This document shows positions 5,182-36,083 of a stretch of 45,184 nt of DNA, in pieces. Position numbers and translations under genes: made by a program. The first letter of the stretch is position 1, and each line of letters begins with the position of its first letter. This DNA is from a virus (lineage: Duplodnaviria > Caudoviricetes): positions 1-45,184 of the IMG/VR virus record IMGVR_UViG_3300038336_000112; one strand, 5' to 3'. The notes beneath the pieces were generated by a model that did no database searches, had not been told where the DNA came from, and saw nothing but the letters and a program-made list of their open reading frames with translations.

Positions 5182-6012
5182 CTAAATATCACCTTTAGCG
5201 ATGTTAACTAAATCATGCCACGTCAAAGTTTCGAGATCCTCACTATTAAATGAGTAATAAGTAGCCAATATATTACTTACAATACGTTTTCTATCGTCAA
5301 AACCACCTGCCAAGTAATTTTCTCTAATCCTTTTATGTTCCTTCAATTTTAGTACCACTGCCTCATATGAATATACAGCTGAGAGATTTTCAATAATTTT
5401 CATATCAATTGATCCGATAAATTCATGGCTTATCTTTGTTAGAGTTGCTACATCTTTAAATGTTGGGGGACTTCCCCCTAAATAGTCAGCAAGAAGTTTA
5501 TGAATGTCTAGTCCAGCATATTTATCATGAATCAATTCTTCGTTACCTGTTAAGCATTCATAATGTTCCTTCTTTATTTCATTTTCTGAAAAAAAATGAA
5601 GCATGTTATTCCTGTAACAAATCAACAAATCAATGAAAGCTTTCTGGAGTCGGTCGGTTCGAAAGTATTCTGCAACACCCATTGCCTTTTTAAAAACTGA
5701 TTGTCCTGCACCATCGAATATTTCTTGGAATTTTACATTTTCTATGTATTTAGGTTTTCTGTTTAGCTCTGTGAAATATAGGTCAAGCCCATCAACAGCA
5801 AAAGCTAGATAAGATTTTAAGATAAATTGTCGGGACCTACTTATTGAATTTTCCAAATTCTCAGGGTTCCACGTGGTTGAAAAATCTTCAGGACATTTAA
5901 TGTTCTTATCCGTTAATCTCAAATTATAAAGAGCAATTAATGAAGTTATCAAAAAATGATTTGATTGTCCAAAATTCTTTTTAAATTTTTTACGTGCAGC
6001 TGTTGTCTTCAT
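5182..6012 (-). CDS. Putative HEPN-domain RNase
   Basis: R-x4-H motif RNNMLH (5613-5596) at the end of a hydrophobic helix, upstream acidic helix AVDGLDLYF, basic N-terminus; defence-island context. Confidence 0.65.
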   Translation of the reverse strand: MKTTAARKKFKKNFGQSNHFLITSLIALYNLRLTDKNIKCPEDFSTTWNPENLENSISRSRQFILKSYLAFAVDGLDLYFTELNRKPKYIENVKFQEIFDGAGQSVFKKAMGVAEYFRTDRLQKAFIDLLICYRNNMLHFFSENEIKKEHYECLTGNEELIHDKYAGLDIHKLLADYLGGSPPTFKDVATLTKISHEFIGSIDMKIIENLSAVYSYEAVVLKLKEHKRIRENYLAGGFDDRKRIVSNILATYYSFNSEDLETLTWHDLVNIAKGDI

Positions 6013-6018
6013 AAATAT

Positions 6019-6113
6019 TGCAACATATAGGACTCGAACCTACATCTCTCCCTTTTAAGGATGCACAAACACACCAGTGAAGGGGAACGGCTTTCCAGTT
6101 AGTCTAATGTTAC
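6019..6113 (-). ncRNA. tRNA-like RNA with 30-nt expanded anticodon loop
   Basis: GTAACAT-TA-GACT-AACTGGAA-AGCC-G-TTCCC-[30 nt]-GGGAG-AGAT-GTAGG-TTCGAGT-CCTAT-ATGTTGC-A: acceptor, D, anticodon and T stems; U8, A14, G18G19, A21, A15:U48 and TTCGA all present; no encoded CCA. Confidence 0.8.
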
Positions 6114-6119
6114 GGACTA

Positions 6120-6148
6120 AGTATAATCTACAATATTCCAGAAAACAA
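6120..6148 (-). promoter_or_regulatory. sigma70-type promoter for the tRNA-like RNA/HEPN transcript
   Basis: TTGTTT(6148-6143)-N17-TATACT(6125-6120); predicted +1 falls on G6113, the first nt of the cloverleaf. Confidence 0.65.
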
Positions 6149-6277: not shown

Positions 6278-6841
6278 TTATTCATATCTCCGTCTTTTAT
6301 CTTCTAATAACTTTTTTAAAAAGGGTTTGATTGATCCAAGAATAATAGCAGCTACTTTTTTTTCTTCTCTACTAGATAGCTCAGATTTTTTATTGAACAT
6401 CTTTAACATAAATTTATAGTCCAACTCTGGATTAAAATTATTATACTTGTTTCTCTTGAAGGCACCTTCTTCAAACAAATAATGAAGCATTTTTTTTGAG
6501 AAGAACTCGGCTGATAAGGTTAAGAATTGGTTATTTTCAATGGCGTGAAGTAACTTAAAAAGTTGTTCTTTAATTTTCACCTCTTCATCCAAGTCGTTTC
6601 TTTCAAACTTTTTTATACAAGAACTTCCAATGGGGAATAGAGTTTTTCCATTTAAATCATTACGAATTGTGAAGAGATAACGTAAATTTTCCTTCCCACA
6701 GATACACGATTCTATTAGTGTATCGTCCTCTGCAAAATCATGAATACTCCATTCTTCTACTGCAGATTTCCAATCTTTTGCTACTGATAATTCGATTACA
6801 GTTTCTATTAACCTATTATAATATGAACTACTTTCACTCAA
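6278..6841 (-). CDS. Hypothetical protein with putative Zn-binding CxC...C motif
   Basis: 187-aa ORF, TTG start with GGAGG SD; SCICGKENLRY...IGSSCI. Confidence 0.7.
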   Translation of the reverse strand: MSESSSYYNRLIETVIELSVAKDWKSAVEEWSIHDFAEDDTLIESCICGKENLRYLFTIRNDLNGKTLFPIGSSCIKKFERNDLDEEVKIKEQLFKLLHAIENNQFLTLSAEFFSKKMLHYLFEEGAFKRNKYNNFNPELDYKFMLKMFNKKSELSSREEKKVAAIILGSIKPFLKKLLEDKRRRYE

Positions 6842-7258: not shown

Positions 7259-8821
7259 ATGCAACGAATTGTGAAAGGAATCCGACTTTTTAACTATTGT
7301 CGTTTTATGGACTTCTCAACAGATTTTAATGATAGGCTAAATATATTGATTGGAGATAATGAATCGGGTAAAAGTAGTATTTTATCTGCAATTGATATTG
7401 TATTGAGTGGAAGTCGTAGTAAGGTTGAGGCACTTGGTTTAGATAAACTATTTAATACTGATATTATTAAGAATTATTTAAAGTCTGCAAAAAGGTACGA
7501 TGACCTGCCTGAACTTTTTATTGAAGTCTTTTTAAATGATTTCAATGAAAAGGAACTAGAAGGGAAAAGTCATCCTTCTGGCCAGTATTGTCATGGGTTA
7601 TATTTATTATGCCAACCTAGAGATGATCTAAGTAAAGAAATAAAAGACATTCTTGATAAAGGTGAGGATAACTTTCCTTTTGAATATTATTCAATAACCT
7701 TCAAAACATTTGCAGACCAAAGCTATACCGGGTATAGCCGGTTCCTCCGTCATCTACTAATTGATAATTCAAAAATTAGCAATGATTATGCAACAAAGAC
7801 CTATATTAGTACTGTGTACCAGGCTTTTGCTGACGGCGCTGAGAGAAACAAACATCTTTATGAGTATAGAAGCTATAAGGAGAAATATTCTAAAACTGAA
7901 CTTGCAAATATTAATAGTAGGATTCAAGATTACAAATTTGCTGTTAAGTCAAATTCCAAAAACAACCTTGAAACTGATCTGACTATTACTGAAGAGGGCA
8001 TTGATATTGAGAATAAAGGGATGGGGCGTCAATGTTTCATCAGAACAGAGTTTGCTTTGCAGAAAAATGGTAACGAATTAGACGTCATACTTTTAGAAGA
8101 GCCAGAAAACCACTTAAGTCATACAAATATGTACAGATTGATTCAAAAGATAAAAGATACCGACTCTCGTCAAGTTTTTCTTTCTACACATAGCAATCTT
8201 ATTAGTGCTAGATTAGATTTGAGAAAATCTATCTTCTTGAATAGCAGTTCTTGCGATCCTCTGCAGCTAAATAAATTAGAAGAGAATACTGCAAAATTTT
8301 TTATGAAGGCTTCAGATAACAATATTTTAGAATACATTATGTCTAATAAAGTATTATTAGTAGAAGGTGATGCTGAATATATATTAATGAGTCAATTTTA
8401 TTATAACTCAACATCAGAAGAGATTGAGAAAAGTGGTATTCATATAATATCTGTTAGGGGGACAAGTTTTAAACGATATTTGGATGTCGCAAAAATTTTA
8501 AAAATTAAAACAGCCATAATCCGTGATAATGATGGAAACTATAAAAACAATATCACTGAGTCATATAAGAATTATATATCAGACATAATCCAGGTTTTCT
8601 CTGATGAAAATGATGATATAAAGACTTTTGAAATTGCTGTATTTAATGAAAACCGAAATATCTGTAATGAGTTGTTTGCTCCTGGTCGAAAAACTTTGTC
8701 AGTCTTAGATTATATGTTATCAGAAAAAGCTCAATGTGCATTTGAATTGCTGGATAAGAAAGGAGAGGAACTTTCCGTCCCTAAATATATAATAAAGGCA
8801 ATAAATTGGATAAGAAAATAA
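7259..8821 (+). CDS. gajA: OLD-family ABC ATPase-TOPRIM nuclease (GajA-like)
   Basis: Walker A GDNESGKSS, Walker B/D-loop LLEEPENHL, H-loop STHS, TOPRIM LVEGDAE and RDND; overlaps a UvrD gene. Confidence 0.8.
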   Translation: MQRIVKGIRLFNYCRFMDFSTDFNDRLNILIGDNESGKSSILSAIDIVLSGSRSKVEALGLDKLFNTDIIKNYLKSAKRYDDLPELFIEVFLNDFNEKELEGKSHPSGQYCHGLYLLCQPRDDLSKEIKDILDKGEDNFPFEYYSITFKTFADQSYTGYSRFLRHLLIDNSKISNDYATKTYISTVYQAFADGAERNKHLYEYRSYKEKYSKTELANINSRIQDYKFAVKSNSKNNLETDLTITEEGIDIENKGMGRQCFIRTEFALQKNGNELDVILLEEPENHLSHTNMYRLIQKIKDTDSRQVFLSTHSNLISARLDLRKSIFLNSSSCDPLQLNKLEENTAKFFMKASDNNILEYIMSNKVLLVEGDAEYILMSQFYYNSTSEEIEKSGIHIISVRGTSFKRYLDVAKILKIKTAIIRDNDGNYKNNITESYKNYISDIIQVFSDENDDIKTFEIAVFNENRNICNELFAPGRKTLSVLDYMLSEKAQCAFELLDKKGEELSVPKYIIKAINWIRK

Positions 8822-9828
8822 TTTTTGCTGTTGCAGGTTCAGGGAAGACTACATATATTGTTGAATCAATAAATGAAGAAGATCGTTTCCTCGTTATAAC
8901 TTACACTGTAAATAATTTAAGAAATATTTCAGCTTCTATTAAGAGGAAATTTGGATACTTCCCGCAAAATATAGAAATCTATACATATTTTAAATTTCTT
9001 TATTCATTTTGTTTCGCACCATTTCTTGCATATGAGTTAGATGCAAGAGGCTTATTCCTAGATTTCCCACCACGGAATACATTAAAATTTAGACGAACAG
9101 ACCCTAGGTATTATCAAACAACTGACGGGAAATTGTTTAAGAATCGGTTGGCAAAACTTCTTGAGGTTAAGGATGTAATACCTGAAATCATTAAACGTTT
9201 AGAAAAATACTATGATTATCTTTACATTGATGAGGTGCAGGACTTTGGGGGTCATGATTTTAATTTCCTAGAATCAATTCTCCAAACATCAGTTGGAGTG
9301 TTAATGGTAGGTGACTTTTATCAACATACCTTTGATACCAGTAGAGATGCCAAAATTAATGAGGGGCTCCATGATGATTATATTTCATATATATCTAGGT
9401 TTCAAAAGATTGGGATACAGTTCGATACAACGACATTAAGTAATAGCTATAGATGTAGCCCTCAGATATGTAATTTTATTACTTCAAACCTTGGAATTAA
9501 AATAGAATCTCATCGGACAGATCAAACTCATGTGTATGAAATCTCGGATTATGACAATGCTAAAAAGATATTTAGTGACAATTCAATAATTAAGTTGTTC
9601 TATCAGAGAAGTGATAAGTACCTAGGCTTTACCAGAAATTGGGGAGATTGTAAAGGCGAAGATTGCTATGAAGATGTTTGCGTTCTATTAAATGCAACGA
9701 CATATTCACTTTATCAAAAAAGGGAATTATATAAATCAGCTCCTTTGACAAGAAATAAGCTCTATGTCGCATTTTCCCGAACTAGAAACAATCTCTATAT
9801 ACTTCCAGAAACCTTGATAAGCAAATAG
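8806..9828 (+). CDS. gajB: Compact UvrD/SF1 helicase-like protein (GajB-like)
   Basis: AVAGSGKTT, YIDEVQD, VGDFYQ, SYRC, LYVAFSRTR; TTG start overlapping the OLD gene stop. Confidence 0.78.
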   Translation: MDKKIIFAVAGSGKTTYIVESINEEDRFLVITYTVNNLRNISASIKRKFGYFPQNIEIYTYFKFLYSFCFAPFLAYELDARGLFLDFPPRNTLKFRRTDPRYYQTTDGKLFKNRLAKLLEVKDVIPEIIKRLEKYYDYLYIDEVQDFGGHDFNFLESILQTSVGVLMVGDFYQHTFDTSRDAKINEGLHDDYISYISRFQKIGIQFDTTTLSNSYRCSPQICNFITSNLGIKIESHRTDQTHVYEISDYDNAKKIFSDNSIIKLFYQRSDKYLGFTRNWGDCKGEDCYEDVCVLLNATTYSLYQKRELYKSAPLTRNKLYVAFSRTRNNLYILPETLISK

Positions 9829-9868
9829 TTTATTGTTTGGCGCCAGGAACAGGAAAGCATGAGCTTCA

Positions 9869-11356
9869 TTAATTATCATAATCAGACAAGAATAAAGGAA
9901 TAGCAACTTCAACGTTTTTATGGAGTTTCTTTTCTTCCACATGAACTGATAATGATAGATAGATCACGGCTTCTCTTATATATCGCAAGAGTCTAAAAGT
10001 CTTTTCTGAAAGTTCGAATTCTGTCACCGAAAAAGCTAGAGTATCATTGCATAAATCTCCTTCAGTTTCATCTAGTTTAAACCAATGTATTTTGCAATAC
10101 TTATGTTCAAGATTATTCCTTAAATCGTAAATTCTTTTTGCATCAGGATCTGCAACCTCAAGATACTCCATATCTTTTCCATCATTTGAAAACAAATCTT
10201 TACTTAAGAAATACAACCCTCTTAATGGATTATTGTTCAATCCCTCTATGTTAGGATCAATTTGATTATTTCTATACCAAACATTTTTAAAGTAAACTTT
10301 ATTCTTATCCTTCCCTAATCTTAAATATTCATTTAGGAAGTATCCAATTTTGTCAAACAAGGAGTATAGCATCTTAAATGAGTTTTTTAACTGCTCATAT
10401 CTAAATCCATACTGGGGATAATCAAATGTATCAACTAGGCATCTGCCTTTATCCGAGAAATGAATGCCTTCCCCAGATAATTCATGTTCATAGCAATAGA
10501 ATAAATACCTAGCAGTCAAATACTCTTGTTTTATTTGATTATAAAACCCTTGGAAAACAGGTGCTGAAAAATCTCGTACAAGCATACTCGGGAGTGAAGT
10601 AACATCATGAGCAATCGCTGTATCAAAGAATAAATCATTTAGAGGGTTAAGGAATAAACCGTTGTCAAGAACCCATTTTTTATAAGATTTTTCCTGATCA
10701 GTCTTCCCTAATGAGTACTTCTTAAACTCATTCCTTTTTGATAAAAAACTTTCCCCAAGTTTTTTCTTAATGGCTTCTACACCTGAATCGAATACTGTTT
10801 GTGCTTCTTTAGGAATATTGGGCTGACTTGAATAGGTTCGAAGTAATCTATACGCATGTCGCAAAACTAATGCTTCATGATTTGTATCATATAGATAACT
10901 AGCATAATAAATTAATCCATGGCCATAATTACATCCAGCCATCCCAAATGTTGGCTCAATCTCCAATGCATTTTTCCAACACTCGATAGCATAAATAATT
11001 CGTCCTGATACAGAAAACATGTTTCCGAGATTTGTATATGCCTGAAGAAAAATATTTTTTCTAATATGATCGGAAATATTGTTTGTTGAAACACATCTTC
11101 TAAATGATTTTATTGCATTGATATGTTCATTACGATTATAAGCCCATAAACCTTGCGATGTTGAGGAACGTATCTTATCCAAATCTGCCCAAGCATTACC
11201 GATATAATATTCAAGAACAGCAAGGTCATCCGGTGTATTGCAATTATCTCTAATTGATTCTGCACTACTTATGCAATCATAAAGTGCTTTTTCATTTTTC
11301 TCCTCGTAAGATTTATCTATTAGCTTACCAATTTGAATAATATCTCCATTTATCAA
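9869..11356 (-). CDS. TPR-containing HEPN protein (LA2681-like)
   Basis: TPR-like AYTNLGNMF...AIECWKNALEIEP; C-terminal FLNPLND, YSLFDKIGYFLNEY and RNNLEH (R-x4-H). Confidence 0.78.
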   Translation of the reverse strand: MINGDIIQIGKLIDKSYEEKNEKALYDCISSAESIRDNCNTPDDLAVLEYYIGNAWADLDKIRSSTSQGLWAYNRNEHINAIKSFRRCVSTNNISDHIRKNIFLQAYTNLGNMFSVSGRIIYAIECWKNALEIEPTFGMAGCNYGHGLIYYASYLYDTNHEALVLRHAYRLLRTYSSQPNIPKEAQTVFDSGVEAIKKKLGESFLSKRNEFKKYSLGKTDQEKSYKKWVLDNGLFLNPLNDLFFDTAIAHDVTSLPSMLVRDFSAPVFQGFYNQIKQEYLTARYLFYCYEHELSGEGIHFSDKGRCLVDTFDYPQYGFRYEQLKNSFKMLYSLFDKIGYFLNEYLRLGKDKNKVYFKNVWYRNNQIDPNIEGLNNNPLRGLYFLSKDLFSNDGKDMEYLEVADPDAKRIYDLRNNLEHKYCKIHWFKLDETEGDLCNDTLAFSVTEFELSEKTFRLLRYIREAVIYLSLSVHVEEKKLHKNVEVAIPLFLSDYDN

Positions 11357-11501
11357 TCGCGCACCCCTTGTTGTGAGTTAGCTTTGCATCAAAATCTATT
11401 CATCATAAATCTCCATACTGAAAAATAATACATATTTAAACTTCAGAAATGATGTATTGAACTCTTTCAAGTTAAGCCTCATCTTTCACTCTTCGCGCAT
11501 C

Positions 11502-14153
11502 TTATAACTCCCTAAATTGTCTTGCCAATTGTATAAATGAGGAATTAGGCAGGACTTGTTTGGAGGGAATAAACAGGTATTGCCATTCCTTGTAGTTATT
11601 GGCATTTCCCCACCGAGAAGCTACTTCACAATACTGGATTCCTCGTTTCTTCTTTGCTATAACATCAGGATCATTCAATCGATCCTCACCTTTCACCTCT
11701 ACAAGATATATAACATCTTTGGTCTCAACCACGAAGTCTGGTTCATAGATGTGACCATGATTATACGTGATGTTGAACTCTTGTGGCATCGGGCGTAGCC
11801 AATTTATAACATCGCTGTCAACCTCGAGGATTCTTCCGAGTACCAATTCAGGATGGCTATCAAACTTAGCAGTATCAAAAACACCTTTCTTTATTCCTTC
11901 AAAGAGAACGGATTGGATTTTCTCTGAATAACTTTCATCAAATAAATTGCTGCGTTCTTTATAGTTGTAGGTTTGTTGAAGATTGTAGTTCCGAGTTCCA
12001 ACAACCTCTTCCTGGAAAAAACCATTTTCACAGTAGAAGTGTTGCATCATTTGATCATATATTTTTTTTGCAATGTCTCGCTTGAACATCATGACGATAT
12101 TCTTCATTCCGTTCATTCCAAACTTATTCTCATAATGGCTACAAAGCTGGGATATTAGCTTAAAAAGCAGCGCGGCGCATTTCTCGTAATCAATTTCAGG
12201 TTTCTTTCTAAGCTCTTCAAGAATGACCTTCTGTGGGTTATAACCTTCAAAATCAATGGTATCACCTTTGATGCGTTGCCTGTCATGCATATCTTCAAGA
12301 TTTTGAATAATCATCTCATTCTTGATTGGTGCATGCGTAAACTCAGAAAGGTCTAGATTAAAGTCAATAAAAACATACTCTTCAACCCCAGCATCAGTAA
12401 TTTTTATCCTTGGTATGGGGATGAACTTCGACTGGGCAGCACGATGCGTTCTTTCCGTATGCTCTTGTAGCCATAGGTCAAAAGGCATCTCGTTTTCTTT
12501 GTAGATATCAGCCAGGTCTTTATCCTGTGATAGTTGATTCTTAACATTTTCAATGATCTGTTCTTTCTGGTCTAAGGTGATGTTATGTGTTGGTGTATCT
12601 TGGATGATTTTAACAACTTCTTCACTAACAAGTTCTTCCGCCTTACGGAACATAGCGTCAGCAGTCTCGGATTTTTCAATATTTGTTTGGCTGTATGCTG
12701 TCTCTAACATTTCGTCCGATTCATTTTCCAACGTCAACTGAGTAACTGAGATTTTTTCCGGTACGATTTCTTCAGCTTTAATGATGTTCCCAGCCTTGAA
12801 TATTGAATCTCCTTTCTGTGCCTCTCTCAGGAGCTCCTGGAATTTGTCGTGCGCGGTGAGCATGACTGCATCAACTTCCTTATCACCGGTACGCTCACCA
12901 TACGGTAAACGTAAACCACGCCCCACCATTTGCTCACGTAAAATCTTTGAAGCAGCGGTTCGTAATGGAACGATAGTATACAGATTGTTCACATCCCATC
13001 CTTCCTTGAGCATGTTCACATGTATGACAATCTCAACAGGATTATTAGGGTTCTCTACATCGAGCAGAAGCCGGGTATTTGTATCACTTTCCGACCCTTT
13101 CTGTTTGGAGTGGACAATTATGGTTTTATTGCTGTAAATACCATCATGGAATTCATCTGACTTCACAAACCTTTCAACCCAAGCTGCATGCTCTGTGTCT
13201 TTACAAACGATAAGCATGAATGGTTTGACTTCCGGTCTATTATGATTAGCTGCGTAGACTTTCAATTTGAGTCTTGCATTCTCGTGGCAGGCAATACCAT
13301 CGAGAAGCATCAACTTGTCGAGTTGTTCCTCACCAAAATTAAAAAAATCAATATCGGTACGAGTTACAGCAAATGGGGTGCGTGTATAGCCATCTTCGAT
13401 AGCCTTGGACAACGGATATTCATATACTATATTCTTGAACGGCACCTGTTTGCTTCCATTTGGAACGAGTGGAGTGGCAGTTAACTCAATACCAAAGAGT
13501 GGATGCAATTCATTAAGTGCCTGAGCTCCTTTCGCTGCCCGATAATGGTGTGATTCATCCATAATGAGCACCAAATCATCCAAATTGGAAAGGAATCGAT
13601 AGAACGAATCTCCTATGGTCTCGCTGACCTTCTTCATATTTGCATCCTCTTTATTGAATTTATCAATATTGAAAACAAAAATATGGATATCAGAATCAAA
13701 TAGCATCAGAGGTTTTTCCTTGTAATCCTCATCGGCAATTATCTGCGGTGGATTACTGAAGCAACCAAGTCCATTGAATACATATTTATGGTAACTAGGG
13801 TCGATCAAATCCTTTTTCAGTTTCTCATAGATCGTTGTATTCGGCGCAACGACAAAAAAGTTCTTAATATTGTGTTGCGTATATAAGTAGGCGATAAATG
13901 CTCCCATTAGCCGAGTCTTGCCAACGCCGGTAGCCAAAGCAAACGCTAGCGACACAAAGTCTCGTTCAAAATCTGTGCATATCGGATACAGGGCATGAAC
14001 AGCCCCGAGAGCTGCCTTCAAATTCATGCCTTTCCGCAATGTTAAGCTTGTGGTGATCTCCTCAAGTATCTTTAATGATTCTGTTTGTGGCCTACGAAGA
14101 GACATCACACCACTAATATAGTCGGTGGTATAGTGAGGATAACGGTTACTCAT
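11502..14153 (-). CDS. res: Type III restriction endonuclease/helicase subunit
   Basis: LATGVGKT, MDESHH, LTATP, LKEGWD, QMVGRGLR; C-terminal PDFVV...EVKG nuclease; ATG at 14153 overlaps mod stop. Confidence 0.88.
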   Translation of the reverse strand: MSNRYPHYTTDYISGVMSLRRPQTESLKILEEITTSLTLRKGMNLKAALGAVHALYPICTDFERDFVSLAFALATGVGKTRLMGAFIAYLYTQHNIKNFFVVAPNTTIYEKLKKDLIDPSYHKYVFNGLGCFSNPPQIIADEDYKEKPLMLFDSDIHIFVFNIDKFNKEDANMKKVSETIGDSFYRFLSNLDDLVLIMDESHHYRAAKGAQALNELHPLFGIELTATPLVPNGSKQVPFKNIVYEYPLSKAIEDGYTRTPFAVTRTDIDFFNFGEEQLDKLMLLDGIACHENARLKLKVYAANHNRPEVKPFMLIVCKDTEHAAWVERFVKSDEFHDGIYSNKTIIVHSKQKGSESDTNTRLLLDVENPNNPVEIVIHVNMLKEGWDVNNLYTIVPLRTAASKILREQMVGRGLRLPYGERTGDKEVDAVMLTAHDKFQELLREAQKGDSIFKAGNIIKAEEIVPEKISVTQLTLENESDEMLETAYSQTNIEKSETADAMFRKAEELVSEEVVKIIQDTPTHNITLDQKEQIIENVKNQLSQDKDLADIYKENEMPFDLWLQEHTERTHRAAQSKFIPIPRIKITDAGVEEYVFIDFNLDLSEFTHAPIKNEMIIQNLEDMHDRQRIKGDTIDFEGYNPQKVILEELRKKPEIDYEKCAALLFKLISQLCSHYENKFGMNGMKNIVMMFKRDIAKKIYDQMMQHFYCENGFFQEEVVGTRNYNLQQTYNYKERSNLFDESYSEKIQSVLFEGIKKGVFDTAKFDSHPELVLGRILEVDSDVINWLRPMPQEFNITYNHGHIYEPDFVVETKDVIYLVEVKGEDRLNDPDVIAKKKRGIQYCEVASRWGNANNYKEWQYLFIPSKQVLPNSSFIQLARQFREL

Positions 14154-15735
14154 TGCATTCCACCTCCATATCATCCTCATATACAGGAGGATGAATGATA
14201 TTCAGATTATAATCTGTTCTACCGAATTCACATCGGTCGAGGAGCATTTGCGGTATCTTCTTTAAAGAAATATGCTTATAAGCGCTTTCTAGCCCTGCAT
14301 CAAAGGATCGGCAAGCGATTATAAGATACTCATTTTCTTCCATAGTATCTTTAATGGAATCTAGATAAGTACTGTTCATGTGACGTGTGGTAACAAAGAG
14401 AAATGACTTCTCATTGCCCACGGATTGCTTCCAGAACAGGTCGTTATCCGGTTGATATTCAAAACCCTCGTGAAGAGCCACCGCCGCGGCCAACATTTCT
14501 GCGCTATACTCTGTATTTATCACAGGCTCCCCGAAAGAATCTGTGTTGATGAGGGTGGGTGCGAGCTCAAAAAATCGGTACCCTCCACCACCTTTCCAAG
14601 AGACAGACTTTGTGATCCCCCCCTTATCTTTTCCAGCAACAACTTTATCAAGTCGTACTTTACAGTGGGTATATGCATGTTCTCCCATCTCAATCCCAAT
14701 CCACCGCCTACCCATTTTGTGGGCGACTGCTGCTGTAGTTCCAGAGCCAAGAAAGGAGTCAAGCACAAGGTCATTTTGATTTGTTGCGATATGAATTATT
14801 CGTTGTAATAATCGTTCTGGTTTTGGGGTATCAAAAGCGTTTGCAGCACCAAAAAGAGCGATAACTTCTTTCTTTGCTTCTTGATTGTGTCCCACTTCTT
14901 TATTCGTCCACCAGGTCCAAGGGACTACTCCTTCACGTTCATATAAATACGTCTTCCTCCTAGGAATACCCCTTCCATCCTTACCGAACCACATTCTTCC
15001 ATCTCTTACTTGTTGCAGATACACTTCCTCAACATTTTTCCAACATCGTCCTTCTGGAGGAGTGTATTCAATACCTGCTGGTGTGACAATTTTGTACATT
15101 TGATTCGGTCGAAAACCTTGTGCGGTAAAATCTGAGGAAGTCCAAGGTCCACGGGGGTCCTCATCTGGATTTTTAAAATTTTTAATTTGACTATCATTGA
15201 GAGGAATTTTATTCCGTACATTTTTAAAAACTTCCCTATTTTTCGCATAGGACAAAACATATTCATGACCATCACTTATTACAGCACGCATATCTGGAGA
15301 TGTACGCTTCTGCCAGAGATTAGTAGCCAGGTAGTTATTCCGCCCAAAAACCTCATCACAAAGAACCTTTAAATATGCTTGTTCATCATCATCAATACTG
15401 ATCCAAATGCTTCCATCTGTAGCGAGTAATCTCCATAGAATCTGTAACCGTGGCCGCATAAGATTAAGCCATTGGCTATGTTCCAGATTATCATCATACT
15501 GCTCAAAAGCAGAACCTGTATTATAAGGTGGATCTATATAAATGCATTTGATCTTCCCCGCAAAATTGATTTCTAGCGCCTTGAGTGCCAACAGATTATC
15601 TCCATGGATCAGCATGTTTTCAGTATCAGATTCTGCAAAATTATTTGACATCGTTGCATTCTCAATTAAAATGCGCGGTTCAACGATTATGGGTTCCGCT
15701 TTCCCATACCAAGTCAGTTCCAATTTATTAGCCAT
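14146..15735 (-). CDS. mod: Type III R-M adenine methyltransferase subunit
   Basis: IHGDNL, YIDPPYNTG, TPKPERL, LDSFLGSGTT (beta-class motif order). Confidence 0.9.
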   Translation of the reverse strand: MANKLELTWYGKAEPIIVEPRILIENATMSNNFAESDTENMLIHGDNLLALKALEINFAGKIKCIYIDPPYNTGSAFEQYDDNLEHSQWLNLMRPRLQILWRLLATDGSIWISIDDDEQAYLKVLCDEVFGRNNYLATNLWQKRTSPDMRAVISDGHEYVLSYAKNREVFKNVRNKIPLNDSQIKNFKNPDEDPRGPWTSSDFTAQGFRPNQMYKIVTPAGIEYTPPEGRCWKNVEEVYLQQVRDGRMWFGKDGRGIPRRKTYLYEREGVVPWTWWTNKEVGHNQEAKKEVIALFGAANAFDTPKPERLLQRIIHIATNQNDLVLDSFLGSGTTAAVAHKMGRRWIGIEMGEHAYTHCKVRLDKVVAGKDKGGITKSVSWKGGGGYRFFELAPTLINTDSFGEPVINTEYSAEMLAAAVALHEGFEYQPDNDLFWKQSVGNEKSFLFVTTRHMNSTYLDSIKDTMEENEYLIIACRSFDAGLESAYKHISLKKIPQMLLDRCEFGRTDYNLNIIHPPVYEDDMEVECNE

Positions 15736-16500: not shown

Positions 16501-17901
16501 CTAGAAGGGAATATCATTATCAAATCTAACTTTTTCGTCGTCCTCAGGCAATCCAAGTACCTCTCTATACGTCTTAAGGAGCTTGTTCTGGAGATACACC
16601 GTTGGCTCTCCGCACTGTTCACAGAACCTTGAGTCGGGAAGATTCTCGTGGGATTGGCTATCATGCAAATTTCCGTAATCGTCCTCCCATTGAGCAGGTA
16701 TGCATCTGTTAACCAATGGCAATCCACAAATCCGACAATAGGTGGCATCAGCACTGAATTCTTCGTTCTGGCACCGTGGGCATTCCTTGACTTTATTTGT
16801 TTTCCGATCGTATTTGATCTCGGACTTGTATATCATCGAGAAGTCTCCTTCAGTATATTTTTCTAAGCTTTGTTTTATCTGTAAATGGTATTCGCTATCT
16901 TTGAATGCAGTAGGTTTCCCGCATGCATAGCAATGTTTCGCTTCAGGATGATTGAGATGCGACGGATCATGTGTACATGGATTTGTTAACGGAGTACCGC
17001 ATATCCTGCAGTATCCAGCGTCTTCTGAGAAAATCTCATTTCCACAGACAGGACATGGGGAAAATTGTGTGTGAAAATTCACACCAAGATCCCTGTAGCT
17101 GAATCCTGAATCATTAATCTTGAACGTAAATTGCTTTCTGCCACACTCGAAGCAATGGGAGGCCCCCGGTAGCCGTACCCATCCACAATGGGAGCAATAC
17201 CAGGTTGCAGCATGTTTAATGTGTTTCGTGGATTCCCAATCTATCTTTGAAGTACTGTACTTGTTGATATCTGCCTGCAGCAACCCAATCCTGGCTTTTG
17301 CGGCAGGAGACGAGATGTCGAATGCTTTCTCGATCAAGGATTCCGCACTGAAGCGAGCCTTTAAGTTCGAGGTAACCGGAGTCTGTTGGATAACTACCCA
17401 ACCTTCGCTTCCATCAGCAACTTTTGAGATGCCGTGACTATCCAAGAGCCGTTCGGTATGGTAGGCGGGACAAAGAAGGTTTCTGGCAAAGCAATTCGCT
17501 TCGTTCTCTAAGCGCTTATAAAGCTCTTGCCCCACTCCTCCCCTCTCAAGTATGGGTTTGCCATATTCTTCATGGTGGCCGAGAAAGATGTGTCCGATCT
17601 CGTGTGCAATGGTAAACCGAATACGTTGCTTCTTCTTTTTTTCATTATAGTAGACGATGTATTTGCCACATCTCTCATCCATAACAGCGGCACCATCCTC
17701 TGATCCAAAAAACTTGAAGCAGTTCTTTTGGGATATACCTGATTGCTCCATAAGTTTTCCATAAGAACAAAACTCAAACAAATTATGGAATTGATGTTGA
17801 ATAGCATGCAGACTCACCGGAAATCGGTCGATGCCGGAGTCCTCAAGTACGATCAAGGCTTCAATTATGGGTTGTTGGTAATCTGGATACAGTCGCATCA
17901 A
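16501..17901 (-). CDS. ImmA/IrrE-family Zn metallopeptidase with C-terminal zinc-ribbon repeats
   Basis: RFTIAHEIGH (HExxH), ENEANCFARNLL; many CxxC pairs in the C-terminal half; overlaps the repressor stop. Confidence 0.88.
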   Translation of the reverse strand: MMRLYPDYQQPIIEALIVLEDSGIDRFPVSLHAIQHQFHNLFEFCSYGKLMEQSGISQKNCFKFFGSEDGAAVMDERCGKYIVYYNEKKKKQRIRFTIAHEIGHIFLGHHEEYGKPILERGGVGQELYKRLENEANCFARNLLCPAYHTERLLDSHGISKVADGSEGWVVIQQTPVTSNLKARFSAESLIEKAFDISSPAAKARIGLLQADINKYSTSKIDWESTKHIKHAATWYCSHCGWVRLPGASHCFECGRKQFTFKINDSGFSYRDLGVNFHTQFSPCPVCGNEIFSEDAGYCRICGTPLTNPCTHDPSHLNHPEAKHCYACGKPTAFKDSEYHLQIKQSLEKYTEGDFSMIYKSEIKYDRKTNKVKECPRCQNEEFSADATYCRICGLPLVNRCIPAQWEDDYGNLHDSQSHENLPDSRFCEQCGEPTVYLQNKLLKTYREVLGLPEDDEKVRFDNDIPF

Positions 17902-18287
17902 AAGTCATCAGAAGCCTGGGGCTCGATGACTCCATCGCTATCAGCATCCTGGAAGGCTGTAGCAAAATTGTTTCGTAGGATTTCCATCATCCGCTCCCTA
18001 TCGTCTTCGGACATGGACTTCGACGCACGCGCAATAATCCTGATATCCTTGTCATCATCAATCGTCTTGTTCAAACTGAGAAGGTAATTGTAGTCAATGT
18101 GCAGCGCCTGCGCAATAGCTTTCAGGGTACTCGGATCAGCCACGATATCTGGATTGTTTTCGATTCGTGAGATGGTGGCATGATTGAGGTGTATAGCCCG
18201 GGCAAGTTCCCGTTGGGTCATATCAAGCTTTTCACGTTTTTCCTGAATGACTTTTCCCAATGTGAGTTCGCTTTCGCTCATATCCAT
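17898..18287 (-). CDS. XRE/Cro-C1 HTH repressor (ImmR/CI-like)
   Basis: MTQRELARAIHLNHATISRIEN HTH; coupled to ImmA-like gene; divergent from lytic genes. Confidence 0.9.
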   Translation of the reverse strand: MDMSESELTLGKVIQEKREKLDMTQRELARAIHLNHATISRIENNPDIVADPSTLKAIAQALHIDYNYLLSLNKTIDDDKDIRIIARASKSMSEDDRERMMEILRNNFATAFQDADSDGVIEPQASDDF

Positions 18288-33685: not shown

Positions 33686-34849
33686 ATGAAGAACTACCTC
33701 ACATCCGAGAGTGTCTGCCAAGGACATCCCGACAAGCTGTGCGACTACATCGCCGATTCGATACTCGATGCCTGCCTGAGCAGCGATGCATATTCACGCG
33801 TGGCCTGCGAGGTCATGTCGACCAAGGGCCGGATCATCGTCGCCGGTGAGATCACCAGCCGTACCAAGGTCAACATACGCCAAACCGTACGGACCGCCCT
33901 TGCAGAGTGTGGCTACAACCCCAAGGAATTCACCATCAGCGTGTTCCTCCACAACCAGAGTTCTGACATTGCAGGCGGCGTCGATACAGCCCTGGAGATC
34001 AGGGATGCCGAGGGTGACCGGGATGAATTGGGAGCCGGGGACCAGGGCACGGTGTACGGATATGCAACCGACGAGACACCCACCTGCATCCCCTTGCCTC
34101 TTGAACTCTCCCACCGCATCTGCAGCATCCTGGACAAGTGCAGGAAAAACGGCACCATCATGGGAATCCGCAGCGACGGCAAGGCCCAGGTTTCGGTGGA
34201 GTATGATGATGGCATTCCCGTCAGGGTTGCCGCCGTCATCGTCTCGGTCCAGCATGAGCGTGACAAGAATCTGGACACACTCAAGGGCGAGCTCATCGAA
34301 AAGGTGCTCGAGCCTGCCTTCATCCACTTCCCCCTCGATGCACACACCCGCATCCTCATCAACCCATCCGGTCGTTTCGTTGAGGGCGGACCTGGTGCCG
34401 ACACCGGCCTGACAGGTCGCAAGATCATGGTGGACACCTACGGGGGTCTGGCACTCCACGGCGGGGGCGCCTTCAGCGGCAAGGATGCGACCAAGGTGGA
34501 CCGAAGCGGAGCCTACATGGCGCGCATGATCGCCAAGAACATCGTCTCAGCCGGCCTTGCCAAACGCTGCGGGGTAGCAATCTCGTATGCCATCGGTAAG
34601 GCCGAACCTGTCGCAGTAAATGTACACACTTTCGCTACAGGAAATATCGACGATGAGCAGCTTGCGGATGCTGTCCGCACAGTCTTCAGCCTCAAGCCGA
34701 AGGACATCATCGAGGAGTTGGGGCTGCGCAGTCCCATATACAACCTTACCTCCTGCTACGGCCATTTCGGAAACTCCCTCTTTGCATGGGAACAGGTGAG
34801 CGAACGGTATATAGAGGCGCTCAAGGGAGAATTGGATCATGACCATTGA
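33686..34849 (+). CDS. metK: S-adenosylmethionine synthetase
   Basis: SESVCQGHPDK, GAGDQG, DGKAQV, INPSGRF, DTGLTGRKI, HGGGAFSGKD, YGHFG. Confidence 0.95.
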   Translation: MKNYLTSESVCQGHPDKLCDYIADSILDACLSSDAYSRVACEVMSTKGRIIVAGEITSRTKVNIRQTVRTALAECGYNPKEFTISVFLHNQSSDIAGGVDTALEIRDAEGDRDELGAGDQGTVYGYATDETPTCIPLPLELSHRICSILDKCRKNGTIMGIRSDGKAQVSVEYDDGIPVRVAAVIVSVQHERDKNLDTLKGELIEKVLEPAFIHFPLDAHTRILINPSGRFVEGGPGADTGLTGRKIMVDTYGGLALHGGGAFSGKDATKVDRSGAYMARMIAKNIVSAGLAKRCGVAISYAIGKAEPVAVNVHTFATGNIDDEQLADAVRTVFSLKPKDIIEELGLRSPIYNLTSCYGHFGNSLFAWEQVSERYIEALKGELDHDH

Positions 34850-36083
34850 ACAGAAACACATCGATGAGTTGCTGCCTGCTGACTACAACCCGCGCAAAGA
34901 CCTCAAGAGCGGCGATGCCGAGTATGAGAAACTCAAGCGCTCGATCGAGCAGTTCGGCTATGTGGAGCCGGTGATCTGGAACAGGACCACCAGTCGGGTC
35001 GTAGGGGGCCACCAGAGGTTGAAGGTCCTCAGGGATGCCGGACACACCGAGCTCGAATGCGTGGTCGTGGATCTCTCCGAGGACAAGGAGAAGGCCCTCA
35101 ACATTGCACTGAACAAGATCAGCGGTGAGTGGGACAAGGACAAGTTGGCTCTTCTCATCACCGATCTGCAGGGTCTGGACTTCGACGTATCGCTCACCGG
35201 CTTTGACCCGGCCGAGATCGACGACCTGTTCAAGGACTCGCTTGCCGACGGTGTGCATGATGATGACTTCGATTTGGAGGCGGAGCTGGAGAAGCCCACG
35301 ATCACCAAGAGCGGGGACCTGTGGAAACTGGGAAGACACCGCCTGGTATGCGGGGATAGCACCAAGGCCGAGACCTTCGAGTTACTCATGGCGGGTGCCA
35401 AGGCGAACCTGGTGGTCACCGACCCGCCCTACAACGTCAACTACGAGGGACAGGCGGGCAAGATCAAGAACGACAATATGACAGGCGATGCTTTTCTGCA
35501 GTTCCTGCTCGATGCCTTCACCAACACTGCAGAGCATATGGCCGACGATGCCTCCATCTATGTCTTCCATGCCGATACCGAGGGGCTGAACTTCAGAAAG
35601 GCATTCAGCGAGGCGGGCTTCTACCTGTCGGGAACCTGCATCTGGAAGAAGCAGTCTCTGGTGCTCGGACGCTCGCCCTACCAGTGGCAGCACGAGCCGG
35701 TGCTCTTCGGATGGAAGAAGAAGGGCAAGCACCTGTGGTACACCGGACGCAAGGAATCGACGATCTGGGAATTCGACAAACCCAAGAAGAATGGGGAGCA
35801 TCCCACGATGAAACCGGTTGCTTTGATCGCCTACCCGATCATGAACTCGTCGATGAGCAACACGCTGGTGCTCGATCCGTTCGGCGGCAGCGGCAGCACG
35901 TTGGTTGCCTGTGAGCAGACCGAACGGAGCTGTGCCACCATCGAGCTGGATGAGAAGTATTGCGACGTCATCGTCAAACGCTACATCGAACTCACCGGAT
36001 CCTCAGCTGACGTCATCGTGCAACGCGATGGATTGGATTACCCCTACGAGGAAGTCGCCTCCCAGGAGGCAAGTGATGGATGA
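34839..36083 (+). CDS. ParB/Srx-domain + N6/N4 DNA methyltransferase
   Basis: YNPR, VVGGHQRL (ParB-like); TDPPY, HPTMKP, LDPFGGSGST. Confidence 0.9.
   Translation: MTIEQKHIDELLPADYNPRKDLKSGDAEYEKLKRSIEQFGYVEPVIWNRTTSRVVGGHQRLKVLRDAGHTELECVVVDLSEDKEKALNIALNKISGEWDKDKLALLITDLQGLDFDVSLTGFDPAEIDDLFKDSLADGVHDDDFDLEAELEKPTITKSGDLWKLGRHRLVCGDSTKAETFELLMAGAKANLVVTDPPYNVNYEGQAGKIKNDNMTGDAFLQFLLDAFTNTAEHMADDASIYVFHADTEGLNFRKAFSEAGFYLSGTCIWKKQSLVLGRSPYQWQHEPVLFGWKKKGKHLWYTGRKESTIWEFDKPKKNGEHPTMKPVALIAYPIMNSSMSNTLVLDPFGGSGSTLVACEQTERSCATIELDEKYCDVIVKRYIELTGSSADVIVQRDGLDYPYEEVASQEASDG

Follow-up and report, generated by a model that had tools for sequence, protein, structure and literature searches.

A conserved two-part module of a tRNA-shaped RNA with an expanded anticodon loop and a predicted HEPN RNase: a possible ligase-triggered suppressor trap

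The window, i.e. the whole stretch of 45,184 nucleotides that we analyzed, is a prophage-like record encoding a terminase, a portal protein, a family A polymerase and a serine recombinase. In a low-GC island at the edge of this prophage-like element lies, on the minus strand, a tRNA-shaped RNA, followed after its discriminator base by 6 nt and the ATG of a 276-codon frame. The features referred to below are the following.

5182..6012, minus strand: gene for a 276-aa all-helical protein with an R134-N135-x-x-x-H139 motif, a predicted HEPN RNase (motif, AlphaFold2, structural search)
6019..6113, minus strand: tRNA gene with an expanded anticodon loop, a predicted pre-tRNA (ARAGORN, Rfam, covariation)
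6053..6059, minus strand: strand B, the 3' half of the internal loop, with triplet UAA and then A37 A38; family pattern Y-Y-U-N-A-R-A
6055..6077, minus strand: predicted 23-nt intron for a cut at 36/37 (inferred from the ARAGORN intron option with a lowered threshold and from register analysis)
6060..6075, minus strand: insert hairpin, six base pairs closed by a 4-nt loop, with conserved pairing and a free sequence (shuffles, covariation)
6076..6082, minus strand: strand A, the 5' half of the internal loop, with C32 U33, triplet UCA and two free bases; family pattern C-U-U-Y-A-N-N
6120..6148, minus strand: putative sigma-70-type promoter, TTGTTT (6148-6143), 17 nt and TATACT (6125-6120), with a weak -35 match
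7259..15735: defence island, context outside the module
7259-9828: Gabija GajA/GajB, within this island
9869-11356: TPR and LA2681-like HEPN gene, within this island
11502-15735: type III restriction-modification system, within this island

Three other loci of the window were noted in passing. Upstream of the tRNA, a 187-aa frame with two cysteine pairs (6278-6841, minus strand) has no convincing Pfam or PADLOC match and is not a conserved neighbour of the module elsewhere; at 16501-18287 (minus strand), an HTH repressor is followed by an IrrE/ImmA-like metallopeptidase with several zinc ribbons (CapH/CapP-like matches), probably a prophage switch; and at 33686-36083 an S-adenosylmethionine synthetase gene stands beside a ParB-methyltransferase fusion in the prophage.

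An earlier note on this DNA, written from the sequence alone, had drawn a near-complete minus-strand cloverleaf whose anticodon loop was 30 nt long and which lacked an encoded CCA, and each of the elements that it named was recovered at the same place. The acceptor stem (6113-6107 with 6026-6020) comprises seven pairs, one of them G-U, the D stem carries a single A-C mismatch and the D loop contains GG, while the anticodon stem (6087-6083 with 6052-6048) closes a loop at 6082-6053; a 4-nt variable loop, the T arm (6043-6027) and a discriminator A at 6019 complete the molecule. The RNA has the canonical tRNA architecture, with 7/5 stems and the D, anticodon and T arms, but not the canonical 7-nt anticodon loop. 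The two programs that the note had proposed as checks agree with the cloverleaf: ARAGORN calls a tRNA at 6019-6113 and, with the intron option and a lowered threshold, predicts a 23-nt intron in it, and the Rfam tRNA model RF00005 gives it 40.4 bits against a cut-off of 29 (E 3e-5), which is the sole Rfam match within the window. The folding energy is not significant by itself (z -1.72, 11 of 200 shuffles folding equally well) and the minimum-energy fold differs from the cloverleaf, so that the case for a tRNA rests on the tRNA model and on covariation among homologues. Four public sequencing runs contain parts of the window, all as contigs, and the single RNA run among them spans parts of the protein gene, not the tRNA, and lists no splice junction.

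We assembled 122 loci homologous to the protein gene from a plasmid, viral contigs, metagenomes and genomes, the named hosts belonging to the Pseudomonadota, Bacteroidota, Acidobacteriota and Actinomycetota; most of the homologous proteins are 25-50% identical to that of the window. In these homologous loci, whose comparison the earlier note had proposed, the cloverleaf recurs in this position, with covarying stems and loops of 23-38 nt: a script that sought it without giving weight to the loop bases parsed one upstream of the protein in 114 of the 122 loci. Another (L062) was recognized by eye and has an odd T loop; three loci (L014, L028, L061) begin inside the tRNA, for three (L023, L067, L112) there is no sequence ahead of the gene, and L122, without a tRNA, matches the protein only weakly and in part. 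The 114 parsed loci reduce to 79 distinct copies below 90% identity. Pairing was measured in 43 copies selected because their arms have standard lengths: 94.6% of the cells are paired, as compared to 34-49% in slid controls, 23 of 25 pairs show two-sided changes, and all five helices covary. Some subfamilies (L013, L019, L021, L026, L085, L090-L094, L100, L101, L103 and the L040/L054 group) have D arms that are very short and variable loops of 3 nt, with the same loop architecture.

The RNA and the protein are tightly linked. When viral contigs were scanned for the RNA irrespective of the protein, 143 pattern matches were obtained, three of which are full expanded-loop cloverleaves; all three lie upstream of the protein gene and were already in the locus set. 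The other 140 fall outside the family, and two of them passed the pairing filter: L259 is a chance match, and L131 (minus strand, near 1500) is a phage tRNA-like gene with an ordinary short loop, apparently a 6-nt anticodon loop, and not a member. The start codon of the protein gene lies 1-27 nt past the discriminator base (49 nt in one copy), which usually leaves no room for a ribosome-binding site; in the copy with the 49-nt gap (L007), a terminator-like hairpin and a T run separate the tRNA from the nuclease gene. No third gene is conserved beside the module. Of 163 neighbour proteins selected at 47 loci, 144 were scanned, and these include neither an RNA ligase nor an MNT nucleotidyltransferase; as read from family names, and with no background rate to set against them, neighbours are of a defence type at 17 of the 47 loci and integrases at six. 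That the RNA and the protein form a conserved two-part module is well supported. In the window, the promoter-type TATACT hexamer ends 6 nt before the first base of the tRNA, although a consensus promoter scan did not include 6120-6148 among its listed sites. A TAnnnT hexamer stands exactly 6 nt ahead of G1 in 14 of the 79 distinct copies, this being the commonest distance, and 3-16 nt ahead of it in 38 of them, as compared to 28% in shuffles.

The HEPN motif is R-phi-xxx-H (PMC13000451), and R134, N135 and H139 of the protein, which are invariant in 139 of 139 aligned members, conform to it; elsewhere in the protein, N18 and W48 are invariant as well. AlphaFold2 predicts an all-helical structure (pLDDT 94), and in a wide structural search the top rows are HEPN proteins (5yep_B, Z 11.1, rmsd 3.4 over 131 aligned residues; 7ae2_A, Z 10.1), at Z-scores below the level under which the tool advises caution for helical bundles. 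An Atlas lead is HEPN_RiboL-PSP, at 0.80-0.84. Foldseek gave no match at E 0.001 against the PDB and viral structures, Pfam and PADLOC offered no convincing family, and none of the ToxN, CptN, TenpN and AbiF profiles was matched at E 0.01 (139 members in Pfam, 58 in PADLOC). Given these Z-scores and the empty Foldseek result, we designate the protein a predicted HEPN RNase, from its motif and fold. It has 390 relatives among 50%-identity representatives. In seven parsed loci (L042, L043, L044, L045, L081, L082, L084), the nuclease frame is shortened by early stops or frameshifts and the tRNA is apparently intact; in L044 and L045, an in-frame TAG follows 84 codons, with about 200 open codons beyond it, and could not be read by the UCA triplet of these copies.

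The earlier note had described a 30-nt loop in place of the anticodon loop and had missed that this loop contains a hairpin of its own. In the window, the loop consists of 7 nt (6082-6076, strand A), a 6-bp hairpin (6075-6060) and another 7 nt (6059-6053, strand B). The loop has 23-38 nt in all of the 114 parsed loci, a 7-nt loop never being seen, and the insert ranges from 16 to 31 nt, as compared to 23 nt in the window copy. The insert core folds better than 95% of its shuffles in 60 of the 79 distinct copies; all four of the hairpin pairs analyzed show two-sided changes, and 83.7% of the cells are paired. A strict bulge-helix-bulge could not be placed in the window copy and occurs in four of 77 copies of the family.

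The triplet of strand A occupies the true anticodon position. Among the 79 distinct copies, it is UCA in 57, UUA in 20, UAA in one and degenerate in one (L035), so that an anticodon for a stop codon, UCA or UUA, directly follows C32-U33 in 77 of them. A loop-blind parse of the 114 loci likewise finds loops that start with CU-UCA in 70, CU-UUA in 25 and CU-UAA in one. Note that a register correction imposing C32-U33 was applied to 19 of the 114 copies, for which the invariance of these two bases is partly built in. The triplet of strand B varies freely: UAA in 25, UCA in 25, UUA in 23, UGA in five and irregular in one (L068). On a tree of 74 proteins (quick IQ-TREE search), UCA and UUA were exchanged about 11 times, at least eight exchanges being forced by well-supported branches, and the UAA of strand A arose once. 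CCA is encoded in 23 of the 79 copies. The discriminator base is A in 39, C in 17, G in 14 and U in nine, some of these being mis-parsed.

We then asked which joining register would turn the two strands into an anticodon loop, using the 77 copies that remain when L035 and L068 are excluded. Joining at 35/36 or at 36/37, which shifts the intron by one base and yields an identical product, gives a canonical loop in 77 of 77 copies and a stop anticodon in 76. By contrast, joining at 33/34 or 34/35 gives mixed triplets, and joining at 37/38, the canonical position of archaeal and eukaryotic tRNA introns, retains a purine at position 37 in only 46 of 77 copies, as compared to 77 of 77 for 35/36 or 36/37. 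As judged from these sequences, the 34-36 triplet, complementary to a stop codon, would be usable for suppression only once the insert has been removed. Part of the pattern may have another origin. The two strands could pair across the loop in all 77 copies (U33-R37, U34-A36, A36-U34), with a central position that avoids Watson-Crick pairs (three seen, 10.4 expected), so that structure may account for the fixed bases, 32-33 in strand A and 37-38 in strand B. The discriminating fact is the pyrimidine at A35, which alone singles out stop anticodons, and this pyrimidine could itself reflect a preference of the nuclease.

These results change the interpretation proposed in the earlier note. That note was right to set aside a group I intron: the insert is 23 nt long and matches no Rfam intron family, whereas the ribozyme core of group I introns, of which one example lies in tRNA-Leu UAA, comprises some hundreds of bases. 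It had also dismissed a short spliced intron, and it is to such an intron that the family-wide pattern points. Of the two anticodon loops that it had obtained by removing 23 nt, CU-UCA-AA agrees with the UCA or UUA conserved in 77 of 79 copies, and the version with UAA falls, its triplet belonging to the freely varying strand. Finally, its preferred view, a tRNA-scaffolded non-coding RNA presenting its loop as decoy, sensor or guide, stands insofar as the RNA is conserved, functional and unable to decode as transcribed; a guide is rejected, and a sensor role finds no support, given the covarying hairpin, of free sequence, in the middle of the loop, and the decoy survives as the main rival discussed below. 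Two other assignments were rejected. ARAGORN labels the RNA SeC, a label that reflects the UCA triplet only: tRNA-Sec has a long variable arm and an extended acceptor/T axis, and the variable loop here is 3-5 nt long in 79 of 79 distinct copies. Readthrough of the nuclease's own stop codon does not fit either, since anticodon and stop codon are unlinked (TAA 27, TAG 15 and TGA 12 in distinct UCA copies; TAA 10, TAG 6 and TGA 3 in distinct UUA copies) and the lengths of the extensions are not conserved.

In tRNA splicing, 2',3'-cyclic phosphate and 5'-OH ends are sealed by RtcB, or by healing and an Rnl-type enzyme (PMC3400036). We therefore looked for such ligases in 34 host genomes of the module (L088-L121, without L122; in L112 no tRNA can be seen). 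A full RtcB was found in none of the 34, and RecA was found in 33. The only trace of RtcB is a remnant in G010 (L123:2529-2675), a 48-codon C-terminal tail located mid-contig. In class samples around a Rhizobium, a Pseudomonas and a Pedobacter host, RtcB occurs in 21, 34 and 23 per 100 genomes, respectively, counting any RtcB match, a few of them fragments, and with the third tally and the pooled figure resting partly on one unpublished positive, G328. Among relatives of four hosts, it occurs in 11/40, 9/30, 10/30 and 18/30 genomes, these sets sharing twelve genomes with the third class sample (Pedobacter); its frequency in the control samples thus ranges from 21 to 60%. About eight RtcB-positive genomes would be expected among the 31 hosts assigned to classes from their record titles. 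Fisher's test gives p values of 1e-4 and 3e-6 for 0/34, and of 1e-3 and 3e-5 when the remnant is counted, kinship being ignored; the hosts are spread across the protein tree.

We also looked for other ligases in the hosts. The only Pnkp-ligase match, in G018 (L124:3112-3690), is a fusion beside an insertion sequence: the first half of Hen1 runs into the final 46 residues of the Pnkp ligase, which resembles the scar of a deletion. T4 Rnl1-type ligases are represented in the 34 hosts by a single match, an intact 378-aa frame in G006 (L268:5281-6417), with no Pnk beside it and weak generic kinase matches only in a search of this genome; G006 hosts L093 (3905-3994), the sole copy whose strand A reads UAA, which is a single case. 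Weak PF09414 matches in ten of the 34 hosts (E 3e-8 to 2e-4, in long frames) are probably DNA ligases.

The reading that we prefer, and in which we infer every step, is that the module works as a ligase-triggered anti-phage trap; we hold it to be right by a slender balance of probability. The RNA and the gene would be co-transcribed from the promoter adjoining the first base of the tRNA, and the HEPN nuclease would pre-cut the latent suppressor tRNA, the insert being excised constitutively. The halves would be harmless as long as the host has no ligase for such ends. Jumbo phages are described as encoding RtcB, Rnl1 and Rnl2 for the repair of cut tRNAs (PMC7824862); an invader that brings RtcB, or Pnk and Rnl, for that purpose would join the halves, and the product would be a suppressor, opal for UCA and ochre/amber for UUA. 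Once charged, this suppressor would read through stop codons, spoil phage and host proteins alike and abort the infection. Since the hosts have no RtcB, it seems that uninfected cells already contain cut ends and that it is harmful to seal them, which favours a trap with constitutive excision; if the nuclease did nothing before infection, an RtcB of the host would either help or make no difference. Also in its favour, we count the remnants in G010 and G018, the ligase of G006 together with its UAA exception, the linkage of RNA and protein, the loop that never has 7 nt, the stop triplets of strand A and the CCA kept in 23 of 79 copies. Against it, the discriminator base varies, which bears on the charging enzyme; the fixed loop bases may be structural; seven protein frames are shortened; RtcB depletion would also be expected if repair merely neutralized a HEPN toxin; the HEPN Z-scores are under the caution level; and the coincidence in G006 is a single case. 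The broader proposition, that bacteria evolved protein-spliced tRNA introns of their own, independent of the archaeal and eukaryotic endonuclease, as an immune booby trap, seems to us evenly poised between true and false.

The main rival, which we consider unlikely though not far-fetched, turns the roles around: the HEPN protein would be a toxin that cuts the anticodon loops of host tRNAs with U-N-A (Leu-UAA, Ser-UGA), a tRNA mimic with two substrate-like strands would keep it inactive, and it would be freed when a phage shuts off host transcription, no suppressor ever being made. Such an RNA antitoxin or decoy would look like what is seen, a structured RNA just ahead of a predicted RNase that stands alone, without a third gene; strand B is often the replica of a real anticodon loop (UAA 25 and UGA 5 of 79), the nearest folds are HEPN toxins, and RtcB, which would undo such a toxin, could likewise deplete the module from RtcB-positive hosts. 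It is strand A that resists this explanation: at the true anticodon position, it avoids exactly the triplets of host tRNAs and keeps switching between two stop anticodons. Nor does a decoy predict the ligase remnants in hosts, the UAA exception in a host with an Rnl1-type ligase or the retention of CCA in 23 of 79 copies. Alternatively, the spliced suppressor could be the same and its trigger another, the nuclease staying latent until a phage component activates it and the joining being performed either through reverse transesterification by the nuclease or through a host ligase that escaped recognition. All the evidence from loop anatomy is shared by this scenario, the invariant N18 and W48, outside the motif, are unexplained, and there is a parallel in the prophage HEPN tRNA nuclease HepS, described as inactive by default (PMC13434031); if cutting occurred only on infection, however, a host RtcB would be helpful and its absence from 34 of 34 genomes unexpected, and we regard the scenario as rather improbable.

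Two further explanations were considered. The tRNA shape could act in cis as a regulatory leader at the 5' end of the nuclease mRNA, the level of the enzyme being set by the tRNA processing of the host or by self-cleavage at both strands, as the short distance to the start codon (1-27 nt past the discriminator, 49 in one copy, usually without space for a ribosome-binding site) and the promoter-like hexamer abutting base 1 would suggest. As a sole function, we find this very improbable, for it leaves both the restriction to stop anticodons and the exclusion of ligases unexplained, but such a leader may act in addition to the trap. The last possibility, a decayed host tRNA left by integration, which the earlier note had put forward as one of the outcomes that would refute it, could be invoked from the nearby prophage edge, the D-stem mismatch, the lack of CCA and the weak folding z-score. 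It is refuted by the covariation across 43 copies in all five helices and is at odds with a position that is always next to the same protein family, whose members are 25-50% identical, in several phyla; in addition, a search of the 45,184-nt window for any part of the tRNA found no second, partial copy. Its probability is close to nil.

If the ligase-triggered trap is correct, the module would represent a third kind of tRNA intron, cut by a HEPN nuclease, and a defence system in which the effector would be a tRNA abolishing stop codons, with the RNA repair of the phage itself as the sensor. It would help explain the patchy distribution of RtcB in bacteria and would provide a compact, ligase-activated suppressor switch together with a two-site RNA endonuclease. 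Under the antitoxin reading too, this would be an RNA-nuclease system for which we found no description, made of one gene and one 95-nt RNA. The module is apparently undescribed, no account of it having been found in the literature searched, outside of which most subscription papers lie.

Several known systems resemble the module in part. In type III toxin-antitoxin systems and in AbiF, a non-coding RNA also lies directly upstream of a single RNase gene and acts as an antitoxin; here the RNA is one tRNA with a stop anticodon, the protein is outside their profile families and, under the reading that we prefer, the RNA would be the toxin. In the arms race between PrrC and T4, a host nuclease cuts an anticodon loop and the phage Pnk and Rnl1 repair it, whereas in the module repair would create a toxin and not rescue the phage. 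PrrC is named in a review (PMC3400036). According to the same source, tRNA introns of bacteria splice themselves and enzyme-spliced ones belong to archaea and eukaryotes. With the latter (PMC3400036), the module has in common that a short insert interrupts the anticodon loop, that two cuts are predicted, at pseudo-symmetric sites, and that their ends would be of the RtcB type; it differs in being bacterial, in its adjacent HEPN-like enzyme, in lacking a strict bulge-helix-bulge and in its position, 35/36 or 36/37 and not 37/38, and its product would be a nonsense suppressor, in hosts that lack RtcB. With bacterial group I introns (PMC3400036), it shares the interruption of the anticodon loop of a bacterial tRNA, but the insert has 16-31 nt, contains no ribozyme, matches no Rfam intron and comes with a dedicated protein partner.

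The protein recalls HepT of the type VII HepT/MntA system (5yep, 7ae2; PMC13000451) and the prophage HepS (PMC13434031) by its predicted helical fold, its R-phi-xxx-H motif and its defence-island context. Unlike HepT, it has no MNT antitoxin or other conserved gene beside it, is partnered by a tRNA gene and belongs to no convincing Pfam or PADLOC family; in a 2026 review of defence mechanisms (PMC13434031), the words suppressor, intron and ligase do not occur. The allo-tRNAs found near toxin-antitoxin genes by Mukai et al. (PMC5389517) are likewise irregular tRNAs on mobile DNA, proposed to be nonsense or missense suppressors and in some cases toxic in E. coli. They have 8/4 or 9/3 stems, as opposed to the 7/5 stems, supported by covariation, and the short variable loop of the RNAs described here, and neither intron nor HEPN is mentioned in the main text (PMC5389517). 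Panoptes (OptSE) similarly uses phage counter-defence as its trigger (10.1101/2025.03.28.646047), but, as described there, with no component in common, a cyclic nucleotide and a membrane effector taking the places of the tRNA and the RNase. Judged by its sequences, the module would fall outside the archaeal and eukaryotic introns, the type III and AbiF families and the allo-tRNAs.
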